Part shown: piece after piece, positions 14,526 to 27,759 of the stretch
Position numbering within the stretch: the stretch's first letter is position 1
Layout of the letters: every line of letters begins with the position of its first letter
Source: an uncultured delta proteobacterium
GTDB lineage: Bacteria > Myxococcota_A > Polyangia > Haliangiales > Haliangiaceae
DNA: 64,000 bases
Direction of reading: 5' to 3'
Assembly (NCBI GenBank): GCA_963848295.1
Contig: CAWKDB010000010.1
Span: 2,528,001 to 2,592,000, forward strand
The notes under the pieces: generated by a model
The model's database searches: none
Seen by the model: only the letters and a program-made list of their open reading frames with translations
What the model was told of the DNA's origin: nothing
Program-made: the position numbers and the translations under genes

Positions 14526-14744
14526 TTACCTGGGATTGAAAGAGGCATGGACGACGTTCCCGGTCGAGTCATCTATCACGACGCGAACGTTACAACCCCT
14601 CATTTCGTAGTTGGAAGAGACCTCCCATCGCGCGCTTCGCCCAAACCATCTGCGATTCAAATGGATGTGGATCGTCCCGATCCATGTCCAGTTGTTGTTG
14701 TGCGCAATAGTCATCGCACGTAACAAAGCCTCATCTTCGGTCAC
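14526..14744 (-). CDS. Small protein, candidate immunity protein
   Basis: Low GC; overlaps the stop of the upstream HExxH ORF. Confidence 0.55.
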   Translation of the reverse strand: MTEDEALLRAMTIAHNNNWTWIGTIHIHLNRRWFGRSARWEVSSNYEMRGCNVRVVIDDSTGNVVHASFNPR

Positions 14745-15232
14745 TTGTCGTTAGCCTTCGTTCCAGACACTCTGCCGGACGCCTTGTATGCGCCATAGAC
14801 GATGGCCCCATACACTAGTGAGCCAATTGTGGCTTCGACCGCCAAACGCCTCAAGCCAACGTAGCCCTCAACGATCGGAAACCGCACTCCTCGCACGAGG
14901 AAACTAGCACTGAAGCCGTCAACCTTCACTCGTGAAATAGTCTCGGCAAGCGCTTCTTCTGTGTACTTAAGCAGTGCTGAGTTGTTGTAGCCGGCCCAGG
15001 CCCCGTCGGCTCGAAGCTCGCGAAGAAATAGGGTTTTGGGAGAGAGTCCAGAATGTACGCGTTCGTGTTCCAAAGCGAGTGCCTGGTCTCTTGGACTGCC
15101 GTGAGGGGAAACCTCGATGTTGCCATATTTGTCGGTTCGGCCCTCGCCAGCTTGCAGCGCGCTGTTGGTCGTCACGCTTGGGGTGAAACGTCGGGCGCGC
15201 ACGTCCGCAGCAGAGTCACTCCCAGCGCTCAC
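14741..15232 (-). CDS. HExxH metallopeptidase-like polymorphic toxin tip (orphan)
   Basis: 'LEHERVH' with downstream 'EEALAE'; low GC; no delivery domain. Confidence 0.55.
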   Translation of the reverse strand: MSAGSDSAADVRARRFTPSVTTNSALQAGEGRTDKYGNIEVSPHGSPRDQALALEHERVHSGLSPKTLFLRELRADGAWAGYNNSALLKYTEEALAETISRVKVDGFSASFLVRGVRFPIVEGYVGLRRLAVEATIGSLVYGAIVYGAYKASGRVSGTKANDK

Positions 15233-15241
15233 CGCCTTGAT

Positions 15242-15487
15242 TCAACCTAAGAACGCCGTGGCGCCCATTTCGAAGCTGAGATTCGCGATCTCATTCACCA
15301 GCCGATTTAGGCGCTCGATATCGTACCTGGAAGTGGGAAGTCGTTCGGTCATCCACGACCGGAGTTGACCGAGGTCTGACAAGACAAGGTTCCGATTCGT
15401 CGACGTGATGTCGATGCCTGTCTCCATGAGTTCGATCCATTGCAAACGGAGTGCTGTGATGCCAGGTAGCCAACTCGGATCGGACAC
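15242..15487 (-). CDS. Hypothetical protein, possibly a 5'-truncated immunity protein
   Basis: Low GC, helical, directly upstream of the toxin-like ORF. Confidence 0.45.
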   Translation of the reverse strand: MSDPSWLPGITALRLQWIELMETGIDITSTNRNLVLSDLGQLRSWMTERLPTSRYDIERLNRLVNEIANLSFEMGATAFLG

Positions 15488-15858
15488 GAGCGATAGGTGA
15501 ACGGCATCGTGGAGAAGTCGCTGATGTTCTCGGTGACGACGACTTGTGCGCCAGCCTTCACGGCAGCGGCAGCGACATGCCGATCCTTGGGATCGTTCCG
15601 CATGGCCGCGACGAGATGCTCGTAGTCCGTGACGATCGCCTCGGGAAACGCGCCCGACATCATCGCGATGAGATGCGTTGCCTGTGGCTCCGTGATCTGG
15701 AGATTCGCGATGAGGTTGCGTGTCGCCTCATCGAGGATCTCCTTCGACCAGTAGGCCTGGTAGAGCCCCTCCGCCGCCGCTTGCAGCAAAACGTCCCGCA
15801 GATGCATGGGATAGAGGACGCATGCATCCAGGACGACCCTGAACGGGGCGGAGAGCAT
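15349..15858 (-). CDS. PIN-domain toxin (PIN_3/VapC-like), native C-terminus probably lost after ~15510
   Basis: 'VVLDACVL', 'ILDE', 'DPKDRHVAAAA', 'VTENISDF'. Confidence 0.85.
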   Translation of the reverse strand: MLSAPFRVVLDACVLYPMHLRDVLLQAAAEGLYQAYWSKEILDEATRNLIANLQITEPQATHLIAMMSGAFPEAIVTDYEHLVAAMRNDPKDRHVAAAAVKAGAQVVVTENISDFSTMPFTYRSCPIRVGYLASQHSVCNGSNSWRQASTSRRRIGTLSCQTSVNSGRG

Positions 15859-15864
15859 CGACGG

Positions 15865-16410
15865 CTACTTGCGGCTCTTGGGCTCGTCGTAACCGCCGAG
15901 TTCCTCGGTGAGCCTCGCCAGCTCATCCAACTTCTCGTCGCGCTCGCGATCTCGCTTCTGCTTGTACGCGAGAACGTCCTCGATCTTCAGCCGCCGGTGC
16001 TTGCCCGTTCGATCGTACGGGAGCTTTCCATCGTCGAGCAGACGGACGAGATACTGACGAGACACGTTCAGCAGATCTGCCGCCTGTTGGGTTGTCATCA
16101 CCGCGCCCACCGGAACGATCGTGAGCGCGTCGCCACGTGCAAGCACTTCGGCGATGCGCGCGAGCCCGTACACGACAGCCTGGGGAATGCGATGTCGCTC
16201 CCCACCGGGACCGATCAGATCGTAGTGCGTGTCGCGCGCCGTCGAGGGTGCGTGAAGCGCCGTCGACAGCTCGGCGATTTCGGCCTGATCCTCGCGTGGT
16301 GCTCGGACGGGCTCGAGGCGCCGGATTCGCTCTGGTGTCACTGCCAGCCACCATCTCCGTTCTCCTTCTCTGAATTCAATGTATGGCGAAATCGACCCAA
16401 ACGCAACCAA
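15865..16410 (-). CDS. Excisionase-type HTH (HTH_17) antitoxin
   Basis: 'MTTQQAADLLNVSRQYLVRLLDDGKLP...GKHRRL'; start uncertain; upstream of the PIN gene. Confidence 0.88.
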   Translation of the reverse strand: MVAFGSISPYIEFREGERRWWLAVTPERIRRLEPVRAPREDQAEIAELSTALHAPSTARDTHYDLIGPGGERHRIPQAVVYGLARIAEVLARGDALTIVPVGAVMTTQQAADLLNVSRQYLVRLLDDGKLPYDRTGKHRRLKIEDVLAYKQKRDRERDEKLDELARLTEELGGYDEPKSRK

Positions 16411-16526
16411 TATGAAGCGTTGGGATATCAGCGGCTTGAGCGAGAAGTGGGTGGGGATCGGCCCGGAATCAGCAGCTTTCGTAGGCGCCGGTCAGAAACG
16501 TCGGACGAGCATGTTGCAGTGAGGGC

Positions 16527-16901
16527 ATGTCGACGGAATTGGCGTGGGGCTTCGCAATCGAACAACTGTACCGCGCGATCGGGATCACCGACCTGATCTC
16601 GGAAGCCGAGCTGAGCGCAGGGATGCACCAACTCGAGGCCGCGCTCGTCACAATTGCGTTCGAGGTGAACCTTGCAAGGGCTCGAGGGATCCCGCTTCGA
16701 GAGGCGGTTCGAGACGAGATCGGCTACCCGCATCTTCACCGCGCCCACGCCTCGATCAGCGACATCCTCGAAATGTCGGTGCCGCTCGAGGTCGAGGCTT
16801 GGGTCCGTCGCGTCCATGCGATGCCGATGCCGCTTCTGGTAGATGAGCTGCGCACGAGCTTGGCGCGTGCGGCCGTCGGATGCGCGTCACCGGATGCGTA
16901 G
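16527..16901 (+). CDS. Hypothetical protein
   Basis: Helical protein-like ORF whose end abuts the IS21 end. Confidence 0.5.
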   Translation: MSTELAWGFAIEQLYRAIGITDLISEAELSAGMHQLEAALVTIAFEVNLARARGIPLREAVRDEIGYPHLHRAHASISDILEMSVPLEVEAWVRRVHAMPMPLLVDELRTSLARAAVGCASPDA

Positions 16902-17335
16902 TTCACTCATCGCGATCACCGAAACCGGCGCATCGTGATCGCCGAAAACGGACGATGGCGATCGCGGGGCGTGGAGACGGTGCTCGTGGTTTTACTTCTC
17001 GGTCTCGGCCTCCTCGCCCTTTCGCTTCGACGGTCCCCTTAGCACGAGCTTGTGCGCGTTGTGGATCAAGCGGTCGCAGATAGCGTCTGCGTGGGTGGGG
17101 TCGGCGATGTGTTTGTGCCACTTTTCCGGCGGCACCTGGCTCGTCACGATCGTCGAGCGGGTGCCGTAGCGATCCTCGAGGACCTCGAGGAGGTCACGCC
17201 GCTCTGTGGTGCCATCGCCCAGTCGTCGAGGACGAGCACGTCAGCGCGGGCGAAGCGCGTCAGCAGCCGGGCGTAGGTGCCGTCGGCGCGGGCGAGCGCG
17301 AGCTCCGAGAAGAGCCGCGAGCCGCGACGGTACGC
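16895..17335 (-). mobile_element. istB: IS21-family remnant: terminal repeat region plus 3' part of istB
   Basis: Minus-strand '[21 protein letters not shown]', '[24 protein letters not shown]...[13 protein letters not shown]'; TGCG...ATCGCGATCACC/ATCGTGATCGCC repeats at 16895-16965. Confidence 0.85.
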
Positions 17336-17339
17336 GTGG

Positions 17340-17781
17340 GATCATCATGATCTGGCCGTCCGACCTCGACGCAGATGGCGACGACGAGCCTTGGGAGCCG
17401 AAAAACCGTCGACCGCGAGAGGTTCCGATCTCGGACGCGTTGCTACCTTGGCTCAGCGGCAATCGCGCGTCGCCGGTTTGGGTGTTCCCGGCGTTGCGCA
17501 CCGGCAAACGTTTCGCCGTTTGGCCAGAGAACCAGTTCCAGCGCGTACAACGGAGCGCAGGTTTGAAGGGTGGCGCGCACACGCTGCGGCACACCTACGC
17601 GTCCTATTTCTTGCAAACGAAAAGCCTCGCGGCGCTCGCTGGCGTGCTCGGCCACAGCCACACGCGCGTCACGGAGCTGTATGCGCATTTGCTACCAGAC
17701 CATCTAGAGGGCGCTCGCAACGCCGTGTCGTTCGCGCCCAGCGTCGACGCGAGGGCTATGGATACGAGAAAACCGCGTTAG
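17340..17781 (+). pseudogene. Tyrosine integrase C-terminal fragment 1
   Basis: 'HTLRHTYAS', 'LGHS...TELYAH'; N-terminus missing at the IS21 junction. Confidence 0.85.
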
Positions 17782-17853
17782 GGATGACAACCTCTACGCG
17801 AGCATCGCGAACGACTGGAAGAGGAGAATGCACCCGGCTACGAACTCGGTTGG

Positions 17854-18231
17854 ATGTTCCCGTCAGAAGCGGGGTCGCTGCGCACGCCGAACAGCATGGA
17901 CAGGGCATGGGCGAGGTGCTTGGAGACCGCCAACGTGAAGCGACGCTTCACGCTACACGGCCTTCGGTACACCTTCACCGACCTCATCCGGTTGTCGAAG
18001 GCGGACGCGGTGGTGCGGCGCGCCCTCACCGGGCACGTCACGCAGGAGATGCAGGACCACTACTCGAACGTCGGCACCGAGGAGAAGCGCGCGGCGATCG
18101 CCGGCGCCCTCAAGCTACTCGCCACCGCCAAGGAGGCAAAGAATGACGAGCAGGGTGAGAACCGTCGGGAAAGTGTGAACTCGGGTGTGAACGAGGCATC
18201 CGAGCGTACGGAGCGCTTGACGGGCTCCTGA
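17854..18231 (+). pseudogene. Tyrosine integrase C-terminal fragment 2
   Basis: 'HGLRYTF', 'TGH...MQDHY'; adjacent to the tRNA. Confidence 0.8.
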
Positions 18232-18244
18232 GATTCGGTACGGT
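18217..18244 (+). promoter_or_regulatory. sigma70-type promoter of tRNA-Gly
   Basis: TTGACG-N16-TACGGT; same spacing as TTGATC-N16-TACGGT at 11496-11523. Confidence 0.6.
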
Positions 18245-18255
18245 TACGCAGCTCT

Positions 18256-21228: not shown

Positions 21229-21244
21229 AGGCACGTCGCTTGCT
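21229..21244 (+). promoter_or_regulatory. sigma54 -24/-12 promoter
   Basis: AGGCACGTCGCTTGCT upstream of ATG 21257. Confidence 0.75.
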
Positions 21245-21256
21245 CGGGATCTGAGC

Positions 21257-21808
21257 ATGAGACACCTCGGCGCTCGATTCGGACTCGCGCTCGTCATCTT
21301 GCTCGTCGGCATGATGATCCTCATCGAGCTGTTGGCGCACGTCGCGCTGCCCGTGTTCCGCCTGGTCGTCGGCGTGGCGATCACCGTGATCGGGGCGCGG
21401 ATGGTGCTCGAGATCTGGAACCGGCGCAAGCTGGAACCAGCGGCCGGAGAGGCCGTGATGGCGAACCTGAATTTCTCCCAGCAGGGCGTGCTCGACCGCG
21501 ACGAGCGATTCGATGTCGTGCTCGGCAGCGGCGCGATCGATCTGACGAAGCTCGTCGAGCCGATGCGCGACGTCACGGTCACGATCGACACGTTGTTCGG
21601 CCGCGCGATCGTCAAGCTGCCTGCGACGGTCGCCTACGACGTCGAGGGCAGTGCCACGTTCGGGCAAGTGCGGCTGCCGGATCGCAGCGCCACCGCGACC
21701 GGGACGATCGAATACACGCCGCGCCGCGATCATCCGCCGCACCTCCACCTCCGCCTGCACGCGGTGTTCGGTGCGTGTCAGGTGATCGAGGCGACCGCCG
21801 CGGCTTGA
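21257..21808 (+). CDS. LiaF-related membrane protein
   Basis: Two TM segments, then 'VVLGSGAIDLT...IDTLFGRAIVKLP'. Confidence 0.75.
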   Translation: MRHLGARFGLALVILLVGMMILIELLAHVALPVFRLVVGVAITVIGARMVLEIWNRRKLEPAAGEAVMANLNFSQQGVLDRDERFDVVLGSGAIDLTKLVEPMRDVTVTIDTLFGRAIVKLPATVAYDVEGSATFGQVRLPDRSATATGTIEYTPRRDHPPHLHLRLHAVFGACQVIEATAAA

Positions 21809-21858: not shown

Positions 21859-22293
21859 TCACCGGACGACGAGCACCGCACACGGGGCGTGGCGCACGAC
21901 GCGCTCGGCGACCGAGCCGAGCAAGATGTGCTTGATTCCGGTGCGGCCGTGGGTCCCGAGGATCGCGAGATCGAAGGTCGGGTCGGCGCGCAGGTACTCG
22001 ACGATCTCGTGCCACGGAATCCCGGTCGCGACGTGCGTCGACACGAGCTTGGCGCCGGTGCCCTCTGCCTCGTGCCGCCATTCCTCGAGCGCGGCGGTCG
22101 CTCCCTCGACGATCGCGGGCGCCAATTCCTCGAAAGGATATTGCGGACCCTCCGCGTAGAACCGCGTTCCCGCGACCACGTTCATCAACACGAGCGGAGC
22201 GCCCGTGTCCGCAGCCATCGCCGCTCCGACCTCGAAGGCGCGCCTCGACGGCGCGGAGAAATCGATCGGCACCAACAACTTCTTGAATCTCAC
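21859..22293 (-). CDS. Universal stress protein
   Basis: 'KLLVPIDFS', 'LGTHGRTG..HILLGSVAERVVRHAPCAVLVV'. Confidence 0.95.
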   Translation of the reverse strand: MRFKKLLVPIDFSAPSRRAFEVGAAMAADTGAPLVLMNVVAGTRFYAEGPQYPFEELAPAIVEGATAALEEWRHEAEGTGAKLVSTHVATGIPWHEIVEYLRADPTFDLAILGTHGRTGIKHILLGSVAERVVRHAPCAVLVVR

Positions 22294-22305: not shown

Positions 22306-22321
22306 TGCATTGCATGTGCCG
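22306..22321 (-). promoter_or_regulatory. sigma54 -24/-12 promoter
   Basis: CGGCACATGCAATGCA upstream of the USP. Confidence 0.65.
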
Positions 22322-22335
22322 ACCGACGAGCGGGC

Positions 22336-24006
22336 TCATCGTCGCCACACCCCGATCACGCGCGGCGCGCCCGATTCGAGATCGCGGGCGACGTGCACCA
22401 CGGTCTCGCCGGTGAAGCCCGGGCGCGAGGTCACGATGCGCGCGATGGTGTAGTCGTAGCGATCGCCGGCGAGCTCGAGCGGCGCGCACGTGCGGCCGGC
22501 TGGCCGAGCGGCGATAACGACCGCGGGATCGAGCGGGTGCGCATGGAAGTCGTACGTCGAGATCGCGTAGCGCATGGTCGCGGCCGGCGCGATGCCGTAG
22601 ACGATCGCCAGGTCGTCGAAGCACAGGTCGTGCGCGCCCGAGCTCGAGTCGATCGCGAAGTTGTCGAGCGGATTCACGCGCGCGAACCAGTGGGCGATCG
22701 TCACGCGTTGTCGCGCGACGAGCGTGTCCGTGATGTAGTCGATCGCGCGCGGGTCGGAGAATCGCCCGGCTTCGACCGCGGCGCGGATCTGTGCACGGGT
22801 GAAGCGCGCGATGATCTTCGCGCCCCAGTACTTGTCGAATCGGTCGGAGATGATGAACGGAGTGTACGTCGCCAGATCCATGTGCCAGCGCTCGGGATCG
22901 TAGATCCGGGCCTCGAACATCGCCGCGACGCCGCGAAGCTCTGGCGCGACGCGCTCCTCCCATGGCCGGCCGGCGAAGCCGAGCGTGAACAGCTGGCGCA
23001 ACATCTCGCCGAAGTCGACCCGGAAGGCGAAGCCACGCCACCAGTCGTGATCGGTGGCCGCCATCGCGCCGAGGCTCATGCCGAAGTCCACCGCGTAGTG
23101 CTTGACGTAGTGGCGGTTCGGGTTCTTCGGGTCGGCGACCCAGGTGTCGACGTACTGGGCCTCGGTGACATCGACCGCGTCGAGCCACGCGAAGATCGCG
23201 GCCTGGCCGCGCAGATCGCGCCGCAGCTCGTGCGGAATCCGGTCGTTCGGATCATCGCGGCGCACGCCGATGCCCGGAGGACCGCCGAGCGTCTTGCCAT
23301 CGATCCAGCGCGAGACCATGACCCGGATCCTGCCATCGGGCTCGTGGTGGACCTTTTCGAGATCGCGCGCGAGCTCGGCGCGGCCCAGCCGACGCTCGTG
23401 GTCTCCGTGGATGCCTTTGACGCTCGCGTCGCGCTCGAGCACGAGATCGTCGGGGCGGATGTAGACGACCTGATCCTCGGCCACGTTGTAGCCGCACGCC
23501 CAGAGCAAGCGGTCCACGACGACGTCGGTGCCGGTCTCGACTTCGGGCGGGTTGGCGATCGCGTCGAACTTCACCACGTACTTGACGCCGGTCGAGTCCT
23601 TGACGATGAAGCCGAGGCTGTTGCCGCCGACCTTCGTGCTGTGGATCGTCCATGGCAGATGGCGCTCGGGGTTGTCGGTGACCGGCCCGTCGCGAACCTC
23701 GTCGGGCGTCAGCGCGAACACCCCGATGCGATTGGTGAACCACGTGGAGTCGGGGACCTCGTCGAGCGCATTGACGCCGAGCGCGCGGTGCGGTTGCCGC
23801 AGCTCGAACGCGCGCGCGATCGGCTGCGCGATCACGCCGTCGTACGCGTAGACGTCGGGCGAGAACTCGCGAGTCGCCGGCGGCTTGGGAACGTCGAGGC
23901 GGTCGTCGACCCTCGTCGCGGCCGGCGCGTCGGCAAAGCGCGGGGCGGGCACCGCGACGGCGGCGCCGCAGCCCGCGAGCGCGGTGGACCATAGCCACGA
24001 CCTCAT
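22336..24006 (-). CDS. Lipoprotein with an atypical protein-kinase-like fold
   Basis: Lipobox 'LAGC'; 'KVGGNSLGF', 'YVVKFD', 'EVETG', 'WLDAVD', 'YAVDFG'. Confidence 0.7.
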   Translation of the reverse strand: MRSWLWSTALAGCGAAVAVPAPRFADAPAATRVDDRLDVPKPPATREFSPDVYAYDGVIAQPIARAFELRQPHRALGVNALDEVPDSTWFTNRIGVFALTPDEVRDGPVTDNPERHLPWTIHSTKVGGNSLGFIVKDSTGVKYVVKFDAIANPPEVETGTDVVVDRLLWACGYNVAEDQVVYIRPDDLVLERDASVKGIHGDHERRLGRAELARDLEKVHHEPDGRIRVMVSRWIDGKTLGGPPGIGVRRDDPNDRIPHELRRDLRGQAAIFAWLDAVDVTEAQYVDTWVADPKNPNRHYVKHYAVDFGMSLGAMAATDHDWWRGFAFRVDFGEMLRQLFTLGFAGRPWEERVAPELRGVAAMFEARIYDPERWHMDLATYTPFIISDRFDKYWGAKIIARFTRAQIRAAVEAGRFSDPRAIDYITDTLVARQRVTIAHWFARVNPLDNFAIDSSSGAHDLCFDDLAIVYGIAPAATMRYAISTYDFHAHPLDPAVVIAARPAGRTCAPLELAGDRYDYTIARIVTSRPGFTGETVVHVARDLESGAPRVIGVWRR

Positions 24007-25424
24007 CGCCACCTCGGCTCGGCGTCGAGTACCGGGCTGACCGAGACGCTCGCGAACACACCGCCATCGGTCGAGCTCGCGAGATCGGCGGAGAGCTCGA
24101 AGTCGCCTTGCTCGCCATGCAGCTCGAGACCGACGCCGTAGCCGACGCGAGGATGGTCGATCGACAGGTCCTCGATCGAAGGGAAGACGCGGCCGACGTC
24201 CGCGAAGACATGTGCATCGATGAAGTGCGAGAGGTCCCACTGGTACTCGAACGACGCGAGCGCCGCGACGCGATCGCGAAACCGTTCGAACGCGTAGCCG
24301 CGGAGAAACTCGCCCCCACCCAGGGTAGGCAGCTCGCTGAACGGCACTTGCGCGAGCGAGCCGGTCACCGCATCGAGCCGGAACCGCGCGATGATCACGC
24401 GCGGCCCATTCGCGATCGGCCAGAAGTGCTGGAGCTCGGCGCCGTAGCGCCAGAAGTCGGCTTCGCCGTCGAAGCCGTCGACGCGGCCCGCGTAGGCTGC
24501 CACGAGTGAACCGGCGGCGTGGATGCCGCGTGGCTCCCAGAGCGAACGCTGCCGCCGCGTATCCCAACGCAGCTCGAGCTGGCCGTACGCGTGGCGGACG
24601 CCGGCTCGAAAACCGACGAGGTCAGCGGCGTCGTACACATCGCCGATCGGGGGGCCGGTCGTGCTCGTCGCGAAGCGCAGATCCGCTAGCGAACCGGTCG
24701 CGATCACGTGCAAGTGGAGCGGCAGTCGCGCGTCGCCGATCAGGGCGAGCCGCACTTCCTGGTAGCGATAGTACGTCTCGACTGCGGTGTCGTCGATCTG
24801 CGGATCGACGGCGGACGGCGGCGGCTCGTGCAGATTGCCATTGCCGATGCCATCGAACGGGTCCGACGGGCGACGGTCGAAGCTCGCGTCGATCCCGAGC
24901 TCGAACCAGTGCGAGATGCGATCGCCGCTGCGGAACGACACCAGCGCTCCTTCGCGATAGTGCTCGCCGAGCACCGCACCGGTCGTGGCCTGCACGGCGA
25001 GGCGCTCGTGCTCGCCGAACAGATCGAGATCCTCGAATCGCATACCGACGTCGGCGCCGAAACCGGTCGCGTACGTCGCGGTCGGGAACAGCCCGATCGT
25101 CCGCGCGGCGTTGAAGAACGTGCGGTAGTAGAGATCGACGATGTCGTAGTGGTCGTTGACCCACGCGAGCCCATGTATCGGCGACACCGCCGCGTCGAGC
25201 AAGAGCTTCGGCAGGAACAGCAGGCCTCGCGCCACGACGCGGACCACACCGTCGTGCGAGTCGTCGTGATCGATCCGGCCGCTCTCGTTGCCGGGCAGCG
25301 GCGCGGCCGCGACGTCGGCGGCGGTGAGCTCGGCGGCGCGCATCGGCGCCACGGTCGGCGGTGGAGCTGCCATCGCAGAGGCCGAGCACGCGACCACGGC
25401 TGTGGCCCCGAGCCCGGCGATCAT
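24003..25424 (-). CDS. Omp85/BamA-TamA-type outer membrane barrel without obvious POTRA domains
   Basis: Signal peptide, amphipathic strands, 'LGGGEFLRGY' and 'FADVGRV...GYGVGL'. Confidence 0.8.
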   Translation of the reverse strand: MIAGLGATAVVACSASAMAAPPPTVAPMRAAELTAADVAAAPLPGNESGRIDHDDSHDGVVRVVARGLLFLPKLLLDAAVSPIHGLAWVNDHYDIVDLYYRTFFNAARTIGLFPTATYATGFGADVGMRFEDLDLFGEHERLAVQATTGAVLGEHYREGALVSFRSGDRISHWFELGIDASFDRRPSDPFDGIGNGNLHEPPPSAVDPQIDDTAVETYYRYQEVRLALIGDARLPLHLHVIATGSLADLRFATSTTGPPIGDVYDAADLVGFRAGVRHAYGQLELRWDTRRQRSLWEPRGIHAAGSLVAAYAGRVDGFDGEADFWRYGAELQHFWPIANGPRVIIARFRLDAVTGSLAQVPFSELPTLGGGEFLRGYAFERFRDRVAALASFEYQWDLSHFIDAHVFADVGRVFPSIEDLSIDHPRVGYGVGLELHGEQGDFELSADLASSTDGGVFASVSVSPVLDAEPRWR

Positions 25425-26800
25425 CGCGCGGGGGCTCCGGCCGCGACCCGGCTGAGTGCGCGATGCCGACGAGCGAGCCGCCATGCGACCCCGATCCACA
25501 GCGCGACCAGGCCGATGTTGAGCACCGCGAGGCCGCGGATCGTGTTCGGAAGCTCGCGTACGCTCAACCACACGAACAGCGCCGATACCGCGTCGGCGGC
25601 GCGTACGACGAACGTGTCGATCGCGGCCTTGGCCTTGTACTTCATCGCGCGGTCGGTCGGCAGGAACAGCGTTTGCCGGACGGTGTTCTGGATCGAGTAG
25701 TTGGCCGCGTTCTCGGTCGCCTTGGCCACTCCGACCAGCGCGATGCTCGTCAGCACGGCGATCGCTCCGTACGCGCCGAACGCGATCACCGGCATCACGA
25801 ACAGCGCGCGCCCGACCCCGAACTTCTCGATGATCCGCGACACCACGAACGCCTGCACGAGCAGCGAGACCACGTTCACCCACAGAAAGAACTGGCCGTA
25901 GAACGCCTTGATCACGTCCTGGCGATCGGCCGTGATCGCCGCCGCGCGAGCAGCACCGGCGAGATCCGCGTGCGCGGTCGCCGGCACGAGGTGCTCGGCG
26001 TGCGAGATGGCGGCGCTCGACAGGATGAACTCGCCGTTGGTCTTGACCAACTCGGATACGAGCACGAGCCCCGCGATCAGCAGCAGATAGCGATGACGCA
26101 CGATGAGCGTCACCGCGGGCTTGCCGTCGATCGGAGCATTCGCGCGCTGGCGCGCGGGATCGTCTCGATCGCCGATGTGCTCGACGACGTTGAAGACCGC
26201 GACGCAACCGATCAGCAGCACCGCGGCAAATGGCAGGAGCGTGTAGGTCGTCACGAAGCTGGCGAGCGCGGGGCCGACGACCGCGCCGAGCGAAGCGCCG
26301 ATCCCGATGAGCGCGAACAGCCGGTTGCCCTGCTCCTCGGTGTAGAGGTCGTTCGCGTAGGACCAGAACTGCGCGATCAGGAACATGTTGACGATGCCGA
26401 GCCACACGAAGAACGCCAGGCCGATCGGCACGCCGCTGCGCGCGACCGCGTACAACGCGACGAGACAGCCGATCACGATCGCGTAGGACACGTTGATCAG
26501 CCGGATCCGGCGCACGCGGTTCGCGAGCGCGTCGTACGCGGGGACCAGCGCGACGAGCAGCACCGCCATCGCACCACCGGAGTACGACTTGAGCTCCGCG
26601 CCCCGTAGCCCGAACGTTCCGCCGGTAAGGATCAGCGCCTCGCGTGCGGTCTTCATCAAGTAATAGCTGGTCAGGATCAGGAACACGCACGACAGCAACA
26701 GCAGCGCACGAAGCCCCTCGCCGGCATGGACCTTGGTGATCCGCCGCAACATCCATTCGAGCCGCGTCGCGGATCCGGCGACCATGAGCGGCGTCGACAT
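25421..26800 (-). CDS. TLC/NTT family nucleotide (ADP/ATP) translocase
   Basis: 'YYLMKTAREALIL', 'QFWSYANDLYTEEQGNRLF', 'KYKAKAAIDT'; many TM segments. Confidence 0.85.
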   Translation of the reverse strand: MSTPLMVAGSATRLEWMLRRITKVHAGEGLRALLLLSCVFLILTSYYLMKTAREALILTGGTFGLRGAELKSYSGGAMAVLLVALVPAYDALANRVRRIRLINVSYAIVIGCLVALYAVARSGVPIGLAFFVWLGIVNMFLIAQFWSYANDLYTEEQGNRLFALIGIGASLGAVVGPALASFVTTYTLLPFAAVLLIGCVAVFNVVEHIGDRDDPARQRANAPIDGKPAVTLIVRHRYLLLIAGLVLVSELVKTNGEFILSSAAISHAEHLVPATAHADLAGAARAAAITADRQDVIKAFYGQFFLWVNVVSLLVQAFVVSRIIEKFGVGRALFVMPVIAFGAYGAIAVLTSIALVGVAKATENAANYSIQNTVRQTLFLPTDRAMKYKAKAAIDTFVVRAADAVSALFVWLSVRELPNTIRGLAVLNIGLVALWIGVAWRLARRHRALSRVAAGAPAR

Positions 26801-26815
26801 GACCAGACGAATGAA

Positions 26816-26831
26816 AGCAAAGCCTGTGCCC
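26816..26831 (-). promoter_or_regulatory. sigma54 -24/-12 promoter of the NTT operon
   Basis: GGGCACAGGCTTTGCT upstream of ATG 26800. Confidence 0.7.
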
Positions 26832-27225: not shown

Positions 27226-27759
27226 TCAGCCCGCGGCCTGGTAGCTGAGCTTTTGTCCACTCACCGATAGCTCGACCATCGCGCCACCCAGCGGCACCTC
27301 GAACACGGCGACGCCGTCCGCGAAGCGCGCCTCGGCCGCGGCGCCGGCGGTGAGCGCGACCGCCGAAGCGTCGGCCCCGAGCTGGAACGTCCCCGCCTTC
27401 AGTCGATCGATCGCGTACTGGTCGCGAAACACGACCAACTCGGCGGCGCTCTCCGCGCCGATCTGCGCGCCGAACGAGCCCTGGGTCAGTTGCAGGTAGC
27501 CGTCCGCCACGCCGTGGTCGAACAGCACGCCGCGACCCCACGCAGCCCCGACCGCAAAGCCGGCTTTTCCGATGTCCGGAAACACCGCATAGCCGGCCGA
27601 GTGCGCCAGCAGATCGTGCAGCCCAGGATCGCGAGCGTTCATGTCACCGACGGTGGCGAGAGCGCGCGCCTCGAGACTCTGGCGCTCAGAGACGGTCCGC
27701 GGTGCGGTCGCGCAACCCGCCACTGCGGCGAATGCACACAATGAAAGCAGCTTTGACAT
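27226..27759 (-). CDS. SYLF/Ysc84 lipid-binding lipoprotein
   Basis: Lipobox 'VAGC'; 'YAVFPDIGKAGFAVG..WGRGVL', 'GSFGAQIG'. Confidence 0.9.
   Translation of the reverse strand: MSKLLSLCAFAAVAGCATAPRTVSERQSLEARALATVGDMNARDPGLHDLLAHSAGYAVFPDIGKAGFAVGAAWGRGVLFDHGVADGYLQLTQGSFGAQIGAESAAELVVFRDQYAIDRLKAGTFQLGADASAVALTAGAAAEARFADGVAVFEVPLGGAMVELSVSGQKLSYQAAG

Follow-up and report, generated by a model that had tools for sequence, protein, structure and literature searches.

The cell envelope space of bacteria is usually thought to be without an ATP supply. According to the available text of a 2020 review, it is not known by what route the periplasm receives ATP, and no ATP/ADP translocase for this purpose is known in Gram-negative bacteria (PMC7432876). 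The nucleotide translocases of the NTT/TLC family that occur in free-living bacteria have been described as uncharacterised (Major et al. 2017, PMC5381601), and the role of their genes there is unexplained (PMC5381601). Described here is an operon from an uncultured delta proteobacterium that joins such a carrier to an Omp85-superfamily barrel and to a predicted lipoprotein with a kinase-like fold. It lies in a window of 64,000 nucleotides, which is the whole stretch that was analysed (contig CAWKDB010000010.1, positions 2,528,001 to 2,592,000 of the forward strand). The source genome is 7.8 Mb in size and 85% complete, and among those relatives of the lipoprotein that have a name, the closest carry the label Kofleriaceae. 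The operon ties three puzzles into one unit, namely periplasmic ATP, the free-living NTTs and the job of Omp85 barrels that have no POTRA domains. Each part belongs to a known superfamily and what is new is the combination; no description of a carrier-barrel-kinase module was found in the open-licence literature, of which the supplements of PMC5381601 and PMC4104836 could list these proteins.

The minus-strand open reading frames (ORFs) for carrier, barrel and lipoprotein are all intact and tightly linked, with stop/start ATGA overlaps at 25424-25421 (carrier/barrel) and 24006-24003 (barrel/kinase), so that the three-gene layout given in a first-pass annotation of the window, made from the sequence alone, stands. 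The features are as follows.

26817 to 26831, minus strand: sigma54-type -24/-12 site GGGCACAGGCTTTGC upstream of the operon, with one mismatch to the consensus
25421 to 26800, minus strand: single-domain inner-membrane carrier of the NTT/TLC family, 459 amino acids (P0003), from Pfam TLC and NTT1 PDB matches
25592 to 25594, minus strand: codon of D403, at the position of the ATP/phosphate-site lysine K527 of AtNTT1, from a HMMER alignment
24003 to 25424, minus strand: POTRA-less Omp85-superfamily barrel, 473 amino acids (P0002), from Pfam Omp85, AlphaFold and Foldseek
22336 to 24006, minus strand: predicted lipoprotein and atypical kinase, 556 amino acids (P0001), from structure comparison and motifs
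22675 to 23694, minus strand: kinase domain, about residues 105-444 (K146, E155, D279, Q284, D307FG), from VIA-align
23155 to 23187, minus strand: catalytic loop WLDAVDVTEAQ, a subclade variant of H-x-D-[KR]-x-x-N, from the family alignment
22342 to 22674, minus strand: C-terminal immunoglobulin (Ig)/fibronectin-III (FnIII)-like beta-sandwich, residues 445-555, from VIA-align

The reading favoured here, with a little less than even confidence, is carrier-fed periplasmic phosphorylation at the outer membrane. The carrier would likely swap cytoplasmic ATP for periplasmic ADP and would move ATP outward, probably in the form of Mg-ATP or with no need of phosphate (Pi) as co-substrate, given that the lysine for Pi and the gamma-phosphate is replaced by Asp. 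The lipoprotein would go to the outer membrane and sit at the barrel on the inner face, and the barrel would be a scaffold or a channel for the substrate, not a BamA-type insertase. The kinase would still be active with its DxTxxQ loop and would add phosphate to a substrate in the envelope from the periplasmic side. Removal of this mark could fall to exported phosphatases, whose genes are often found close by, and the whole system would be under sigma54 control. The substrate may be a protein or glycan, as for Fam20C, Fam20B and CotH, or an outer-membrane lipid, as for PI4KII and MavQ, and the two are given about equal weight.

The kinase was placed only by its structure. Its sequence drew nothing significant from Pfam, NCBIfam or the PDB sequences, the Pfam models for Fam20C (PF06702), CotH and HipA included (PF06702 gave no match at E up to 1), and a search of the ESM Atlas returned unnamed clusters with weak leads (0.78-0.79) to Fam20C, HipA_2 and LepB_N. 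An AlphaFold model built on a 127-sequence alignment has a mean predicted local distance difference test (pLDDT) score of 95.9, and was compared with 48,161 solved chains by VIA-align. The top 14 matches are all atypical kinases, with Z scores of 9.5-13.9, led by CtkA (Z 13.9, root-mean-square deviation 4.3, 232 residues aligned) and Fam20C (13.6, 3.8, 255), and followed by Hydra Fam20 (12.6), PI4KIIa (12.4), CotH (11.7), actin-fragmin kinase (11.3), MavQ (11.0) and HipA (10.6). Unrelated matches start at 8.1 and fall on the C-terminal domain, for which Z scores of about 7-8 to FnIII and Ig domains are middling and indicate a general fold only. Foldseek also ranked Fam20C first, with a modest E of 6e-4, and the closest fold matches of the lipoprotein are found among extracytoplasmic or secreted kinases. 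The kinase fold that had been named beforehand as a test of the idea is thus predicted for the lipoprotein, with Z up to 13.9. By its modelled bilobed fold the lipoprotein belongs to the protein-kinase-like superfamily (the Fam20C/CotH/PI4KII/HipA clade), and it folds like Fam20C yet forms a separate family outside Fam20C proper (PF06702). Since CtkA, Fam20C, PI4KII and others are tied as top matches, the fold cannot choose between a protein, sugar or lipid substrate.

The motifs listed by the first-pass annotation were found in the order claimed (K125-VGGNS, VVK146FD, E155, WLDAVD279, D307FG), and they supply the beta3 Lys (K146), the helix-C Glu (E155), the catalytic Asp (D279) and the metal-binding Asp of DFG (D307). 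The lipobox LAG-C13 is seen directly in the window lipoprotein; a regular expression for it matches 86 of 127 family members, and many of the others have, by eye, ordinary signal-like N-termini. With 2531 clusters at 50% identity the family is a large one, and it still has no Pfam or NCBIfam model. Kinase-barrel fusions were sought among longer proteins, giving three matches with none fused to a barrel, which is weak evidence by the method's own caveat. P0235 (glycosyltransferase plus kinase) and P0273 appear to be read-through joins and were left out of use, and in P0274 and P0275, family kinases of about 1160 amino acids, a long C-terminal extension matches nothing in Pfam.

The barrel was recognised by Pfam as Omp85 (E 1e-10). 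Its AlphaFold model (pLDDT 87.8) consists of a signal-like N-terminus, a long helix (60-103) and 16 strands (residues 110-464), with the RGY motif of L6 present as LRGY at residues 374-377, and Foldseek matched it to TamA at E 3e-14. No POTRA domain was found in the model or in the Pfam search, in agreement with the earlier description of an Omp85-like barrel without clear POTRA. The modelled barrel fits the noNterm type of the Omp85 superfamily and, by the POTRA criterion, not a BamA/TamA insertase. In the available text of a study of PlpD, an Omp85 barrel can keep its enzyme periplasmic rather than secrete it (PMC11116518).

The barrel and the kinase are almost never apart. Gene neighbourhoods were collected for 77 genome loci, from the best 80 of 223 kinase relatives, and for 79 distant metagenome loci of 40-73% G+C, from the best 80 of 445. 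A barrel homologue occurs in 73 of the 77 genome loci, nearly always directly upstream of the kinase, and the four misses begin at a contig edge; all 51 genome loci of at least 12 kb have it. It occurs in 66/79 metagenome loci and in 31/31 of those of at least 9 kb, so that the pairing holds in all 82 long loci of both sets combined. An NTT-like gene lies within the flank in 38/77 genome loci (26/51 long) and in 30/79 metagenome loci (19/31 long). The fixed unit is therefore the barrel plus the kinase, which are near-inseparable, and the carrier is a frequent but optional partner. A strict three-gene unit was rejected, given that the carrier adjoins in only about half of the loci; the recurrent triad proposed at first survives as recurrent co-occurrence in which only barrel and kinase are near-obligate. 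In a phylum sample of 201 genomes, with 7-8 candidates scored per genome and related genomes not independent, 18 of 19 kinase-positive genomes have an NTT-like gene versus 61 of 182 kinase-negative ones, and by coordinates it lies within 10 kb of the kinase in 13/19. One distant kinase cluster has a member labelled Gemmatimonadota. Other recurring neighbours are NTT-HEAT and cyclic nucleotide (cNMP) genes and an MlaE-F-D-PqiC cluster, and exported-type phosphatases occur in 24/77 genome and 16/79 metagenome loci.

Membership of the carrier in the TLC/NTT family, as first claimed, was borne out by homology. Pfam TLC (PF03219) matches at E 7e-10 (38.7 bits against a cut-off of 21); TIGR00769 scores 31, below its cut-off of 387. 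The only PDB relatives are the NTT1 structures 9j3n and 9j3j (profile E 3e-15 and 8e-13). Residues were mapped by adding 84 to the chain number of 9j3j, a deduced offset that is consistent at four sites, such that K71, E161, E301 and K443 of 9j3j correspond to the published K155, E245, E385 and K527 of AtNTT1. The aligned residues of P0003 are K71 (K155), G135 (at E245), E257 (E385) and D403 (at K527). Among 64 close carriers, these sites hold K in 56, G in 61, E in 60 and D in 58, and an Arg stands one turn ahead of D403 in 62. The canonical signature of an ATP/ADP+Pi exchanger of the AtNTT1 type is thus absent, two of the four residues being different. Two carriers beside kinase loci (L037:3863-5365 and L080:8638-10146) have Lys rather than Asp at the K527 position, and one ORF of 1241 amino acids (L066:9443-13168) holds two tandem NTT domains as a fusion of two carrier types.

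Independent support for an ATP supply comes from carriers away from the kinase. In a reverse test, 20 carrier loci were taken, comprising all 16 close carriers of kinase-negative genomes and four of kinase-positive genomes; neither kinase nor barrel was found in any of these 20. In 8 of the 16 kinase-negative loci (L086, L087, L090-L094 and L096, e.g. L094:1245-8541), two beta-lactamase-fold genes follow the carrier, and convergent with them is a gene for a dikinase of about 1000 amino acids. The dikinase has, by eye, a signal-peptide-like N-terminus, a phosphoenolpyruvate (PEP)-utiliser His-swivel domain with an invariant SHxQLLARN, and a PPDK_N ATP-grasp domain, an order that we take to resemble that of glucan-water dikinase. 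It was found at full length in at least nine genomes of five families, and each of the nine has a close carrier and lacks the kinase; carrier and dikinase genes adjoin in eight genomes, and in the ninth both lie at contig ends. The strongest independent argument for a supply role is this second, non-homologous and probably exported ATP enzyme next to carriers of one subfamily; it hints that the close-carrier subfamily serves exported ATP-using enzymes. Together, the carrier and two unlike, probably exported ATP enzymes suggest, and do not prove, that these bacteria send ATP into the cell envelope. A broader proposal, which we regard as possible and hold more loosely than the one for the operon, is a dedicated periplasmic ATP supply line in free-living diderms, in which an NTT subfamily retooled at K527 exports ATP and returns ADP or AMP to the cytoplasm. 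At least two unrelated exported enzyme systems would draw on it: one is a Fam20C-like kinase with an Omp85 barrel of its own, the other an enzyme resembling glucan-water dikinase next to proteins of the penicillin-binding fold. A separate Fam20C-like family (PF06702) with signal- or lipoprotein-like N-termini is found in 22 of the 201 genomes (e.g. L082:13438-14538, L085:1007-2173). It lies within 16 kb of an NTT-like gene in seven genomes, all of one family, and hence was not counted as a third link.

Several results weigh against a carrier that feeds the kinase. The main one opposing ATP export is the Asp at K527, as judged from the alignment, given that in the available text of mutant studies AtNTT1 K527E binds ADP and not ATP (PMC3306366) and K527 is linked to the transport of triphosphate and Pi (PMC4256464). 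The E245 position is also changed, to Gly, and with both changes ATP export is not safe to assume and is weaker than the family label implies. Mg-ATP might still be bound by an Asp, and export powered by the membrane potential would presumably need no Pi coupling; both soften the objection and do not remove it. A carrier is absent from the vicinity in about half of the kinase loci, among them each of the five further genome loci whose kinase has the DxTxxQ loop. Two barrel-kinase pairs and a single carrier gene occur in the source genome, and the second pair (L003:5765-13298, at about 4.184-4.191 Mb, with the kinase loop DRVDVSRGN) is without a carrier. The dikinase is missing from 12 of the 20 carrier loci, where the neighbours are mostly unrelated, so that the carrier-dikinase tie is not strict. 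The window kinase departs from its family at H277, K/R281, N284 and R323, the signal peptides were read by eye or regular expression rather than by a predictor, and periplasmic phosphatases, in the available text of the review above, would drain exported ATP (PMC7432876).

An unlikely alternative, though the best placed of those considered, is a kinase at the cell surface: the barrel would flip the lipoprotein outward, the kinase would use ATP released by lysed prey or neighbours, and the carrier would import the resulting ADP, AMP or NAD. Asp at K527 fits specificity for di- or monophosphates or for NAD, an optional carrier is as expected, nearby exported phosphatases fit nucleotide breakdown, and Ig-like tails are common in surface proteins; a lipoprotein-flipping role has also been floated for noNterm Omp85s, in the available text of PMC11358297. 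Against this, some family members have by eye an ordinary signal peptide and no lipobox, and the enzyme domain of PlpD, long thought to be secreted, is periplasmic as far as the available text goes (PMC11116518). The carrier also tracks the large dikinase in a cluster that has no barrel, for which a periplasmic consumer fits better.

Somewhat less probable is an active family in which the window copy serves as a pseudokinase or a sensor of nucleotides, with control over a paralogue much as Fam20A controls Fam20C. Across the family alignment (n=127), conservation is 122 at K146, 99 at E155, 86 at H277, 125 at D279, 104 at K/R281, 115 at N284 and 125 at D307, and the consensus loop is the canonical H-x-D-[KR]-x-x-N. 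The window loop is instead A277-V-D279-V-T281-E-A-Q284, such that the catalytic-loop Asn, the second metal ligand, and the preceding His are missing, as they are throughout its subclade. The pattern [AS]xDx[TS]ExQ is common to 33 of the 120 closest sequences, which form one side of a branch with SH-aLRT support of 99 in a quick 77-row tree that took in all 33 variants and 44 of the 87 others. Q284 and W323 occur in 33/33, versus N in 86/87 and R in 86/87 of the others. The four linked changes of the subclade (H277A/S, T/S281, N284Q and R323W) favour a pseudokinase, as does the frequent coexistence of DxTxxQ copies with other paralogues in one genome. Fam20A, in the available text of work on it, shows how a kinase of this kind can lose activity through a Gln at a metal ligand, there in place of a metal-binding Glu at a different position (PMC7948968). 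Against a pseudokinase, K146, E155, D279 and D307 are kept in 33/33 members across long branches, and close relatives vary freely at position 281, with Q, K, H or N. Ser or Thr stands at the position equivalent to 281 in active RIO and Bud32 kinases. Decay of the window copy is ruled out by the catalytic set kept in all 33 members, and a conserved subclade that retains Lys, Glu, Asp and DFG points to specialisation. The loop is indeed atypical (DVTEAQ), as first noted, and the pseudokinase raised with it is now a minority reading, given a conserved signature within a canonical-loop family. The loop, as read from the alignment, may mark a substrate site that has changed or a pseudokinase with a regulatory role.

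It is improbable that the operon is a lipid-handling unit tied to a Mla/Pqi-type transporter, with a carrier that moves a lipid-related nucleotide or another metabolite and not ATP. MlaD/PqiC-type genes occur in 12/77 genome loci (in 11 they lie directly upstream in the same orientation) and also in the source genome, where the second pair sits behind MlaE-MlaF-MlaD-PqiC-type genes and before a PF04185 phosphoesterase. PI4KIIa and MavQ are among the fold matches, and PAP2 phosphatases lie nearby. No Mla family, however, recurs in at least 3 of the 79 distant loci, so that the link may be lineage-specific co-regulation, and the kinase would still require a phosphoryl donor. Least probable is a carrier merely co-regulated in sigma54 clusters and with no functional tie to the barrel-kinase pair, as NTT-like genes in 61/182 kinase-negative genomes and sigma54-type sites before flanking genes would allow. 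Against it, the adjacency recurs in many orders and orientations across loci of 40-73% G+C and is much more frequent than chance would give in a 7-Mb genome (roughly 2%), and the window genes overlap by ATGA.

The promoter claim was upheld in part. The site at 26817-26831 was scored against a -24/-12 consensus that we take to be the standard one. The site is there with one mismatch, and the motif precedes 18 of 66 related operons versus 1 of 329 coding-region controls (the controls are not intergenic); sites with two mismatches number 50 in the window against 50.0 expected, so that a single site alone is at chance level. A scan for sigma70 promoters and terminators gave matches at chance level. 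Flanking the operon are a Usp gene (21859-22293, minus strand) preceded by a sigma54-type site at 22307-22321, a LiaF-like gene (21257-21808, plus strand) preceded by one at 21229-21243, and a SYLF lipoprotein gene (27226-27759, minus strand) of a type that recurs near three related loci. Integrase-like remnants, an excisionase-type helix-turn-helix and PIN-like pair, and toxin-immunity-like short ORFs in the ORF list at about 14700-18250 suggest a mobile insertion.

The carrier is homologous to AtNTT1 and to chlamydial NTT1 and retains the K155 and E385 positions; unlike these translocases, it has Gly at E245 and Asp at K527, and its host has a 7.8-Mb genome and is no reduced parasite. Free-living NTT and NTT-HEAT-cNBD forms have been described (PMC5381601), and NTT-HEAT and cNMP genes are frequent partners in related loci; the main text of that paper names no barrel or kinase as a neighbour of NTT genes. 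The barrel resembles the noNterm Omp85s (Heinz and Lithgow 2014, PMC4104836; Leptospira paralogues, PMC11358297), as far as the available texts describe them, in its 16 strands, the RGY of L6 and the lack of POTRA, and differs in an N-terminal helix that is long and conserved; neither paper, in the available text, uses the word 'kinase'. PlpD and Metallo-Omp85 likewise pair a barrel with an enzyme, which here is a kinase encoded by a separate adjacent gene. The lipoprotein shares its fold (Z 10.6-13.9) and the Lys, Glu, Asp and DFG set with Fam20C/Fam20B, CotH, CtkA, PI4KII and HipA. It differs in its 7-14% identity to them and in being a bacterial lipoprotein with an Ig-like tail, encoded behind an Omp85 barrel, and the family loop is HxD[KR]xxN where the window copy has DxTxxQ. 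Fam20 and CotH act outside the cytosol, as is proposed for the lipoprotein kinase, and the supply line, if true, would be a bacterial counterpart of secretory-pathway phosphorylation.

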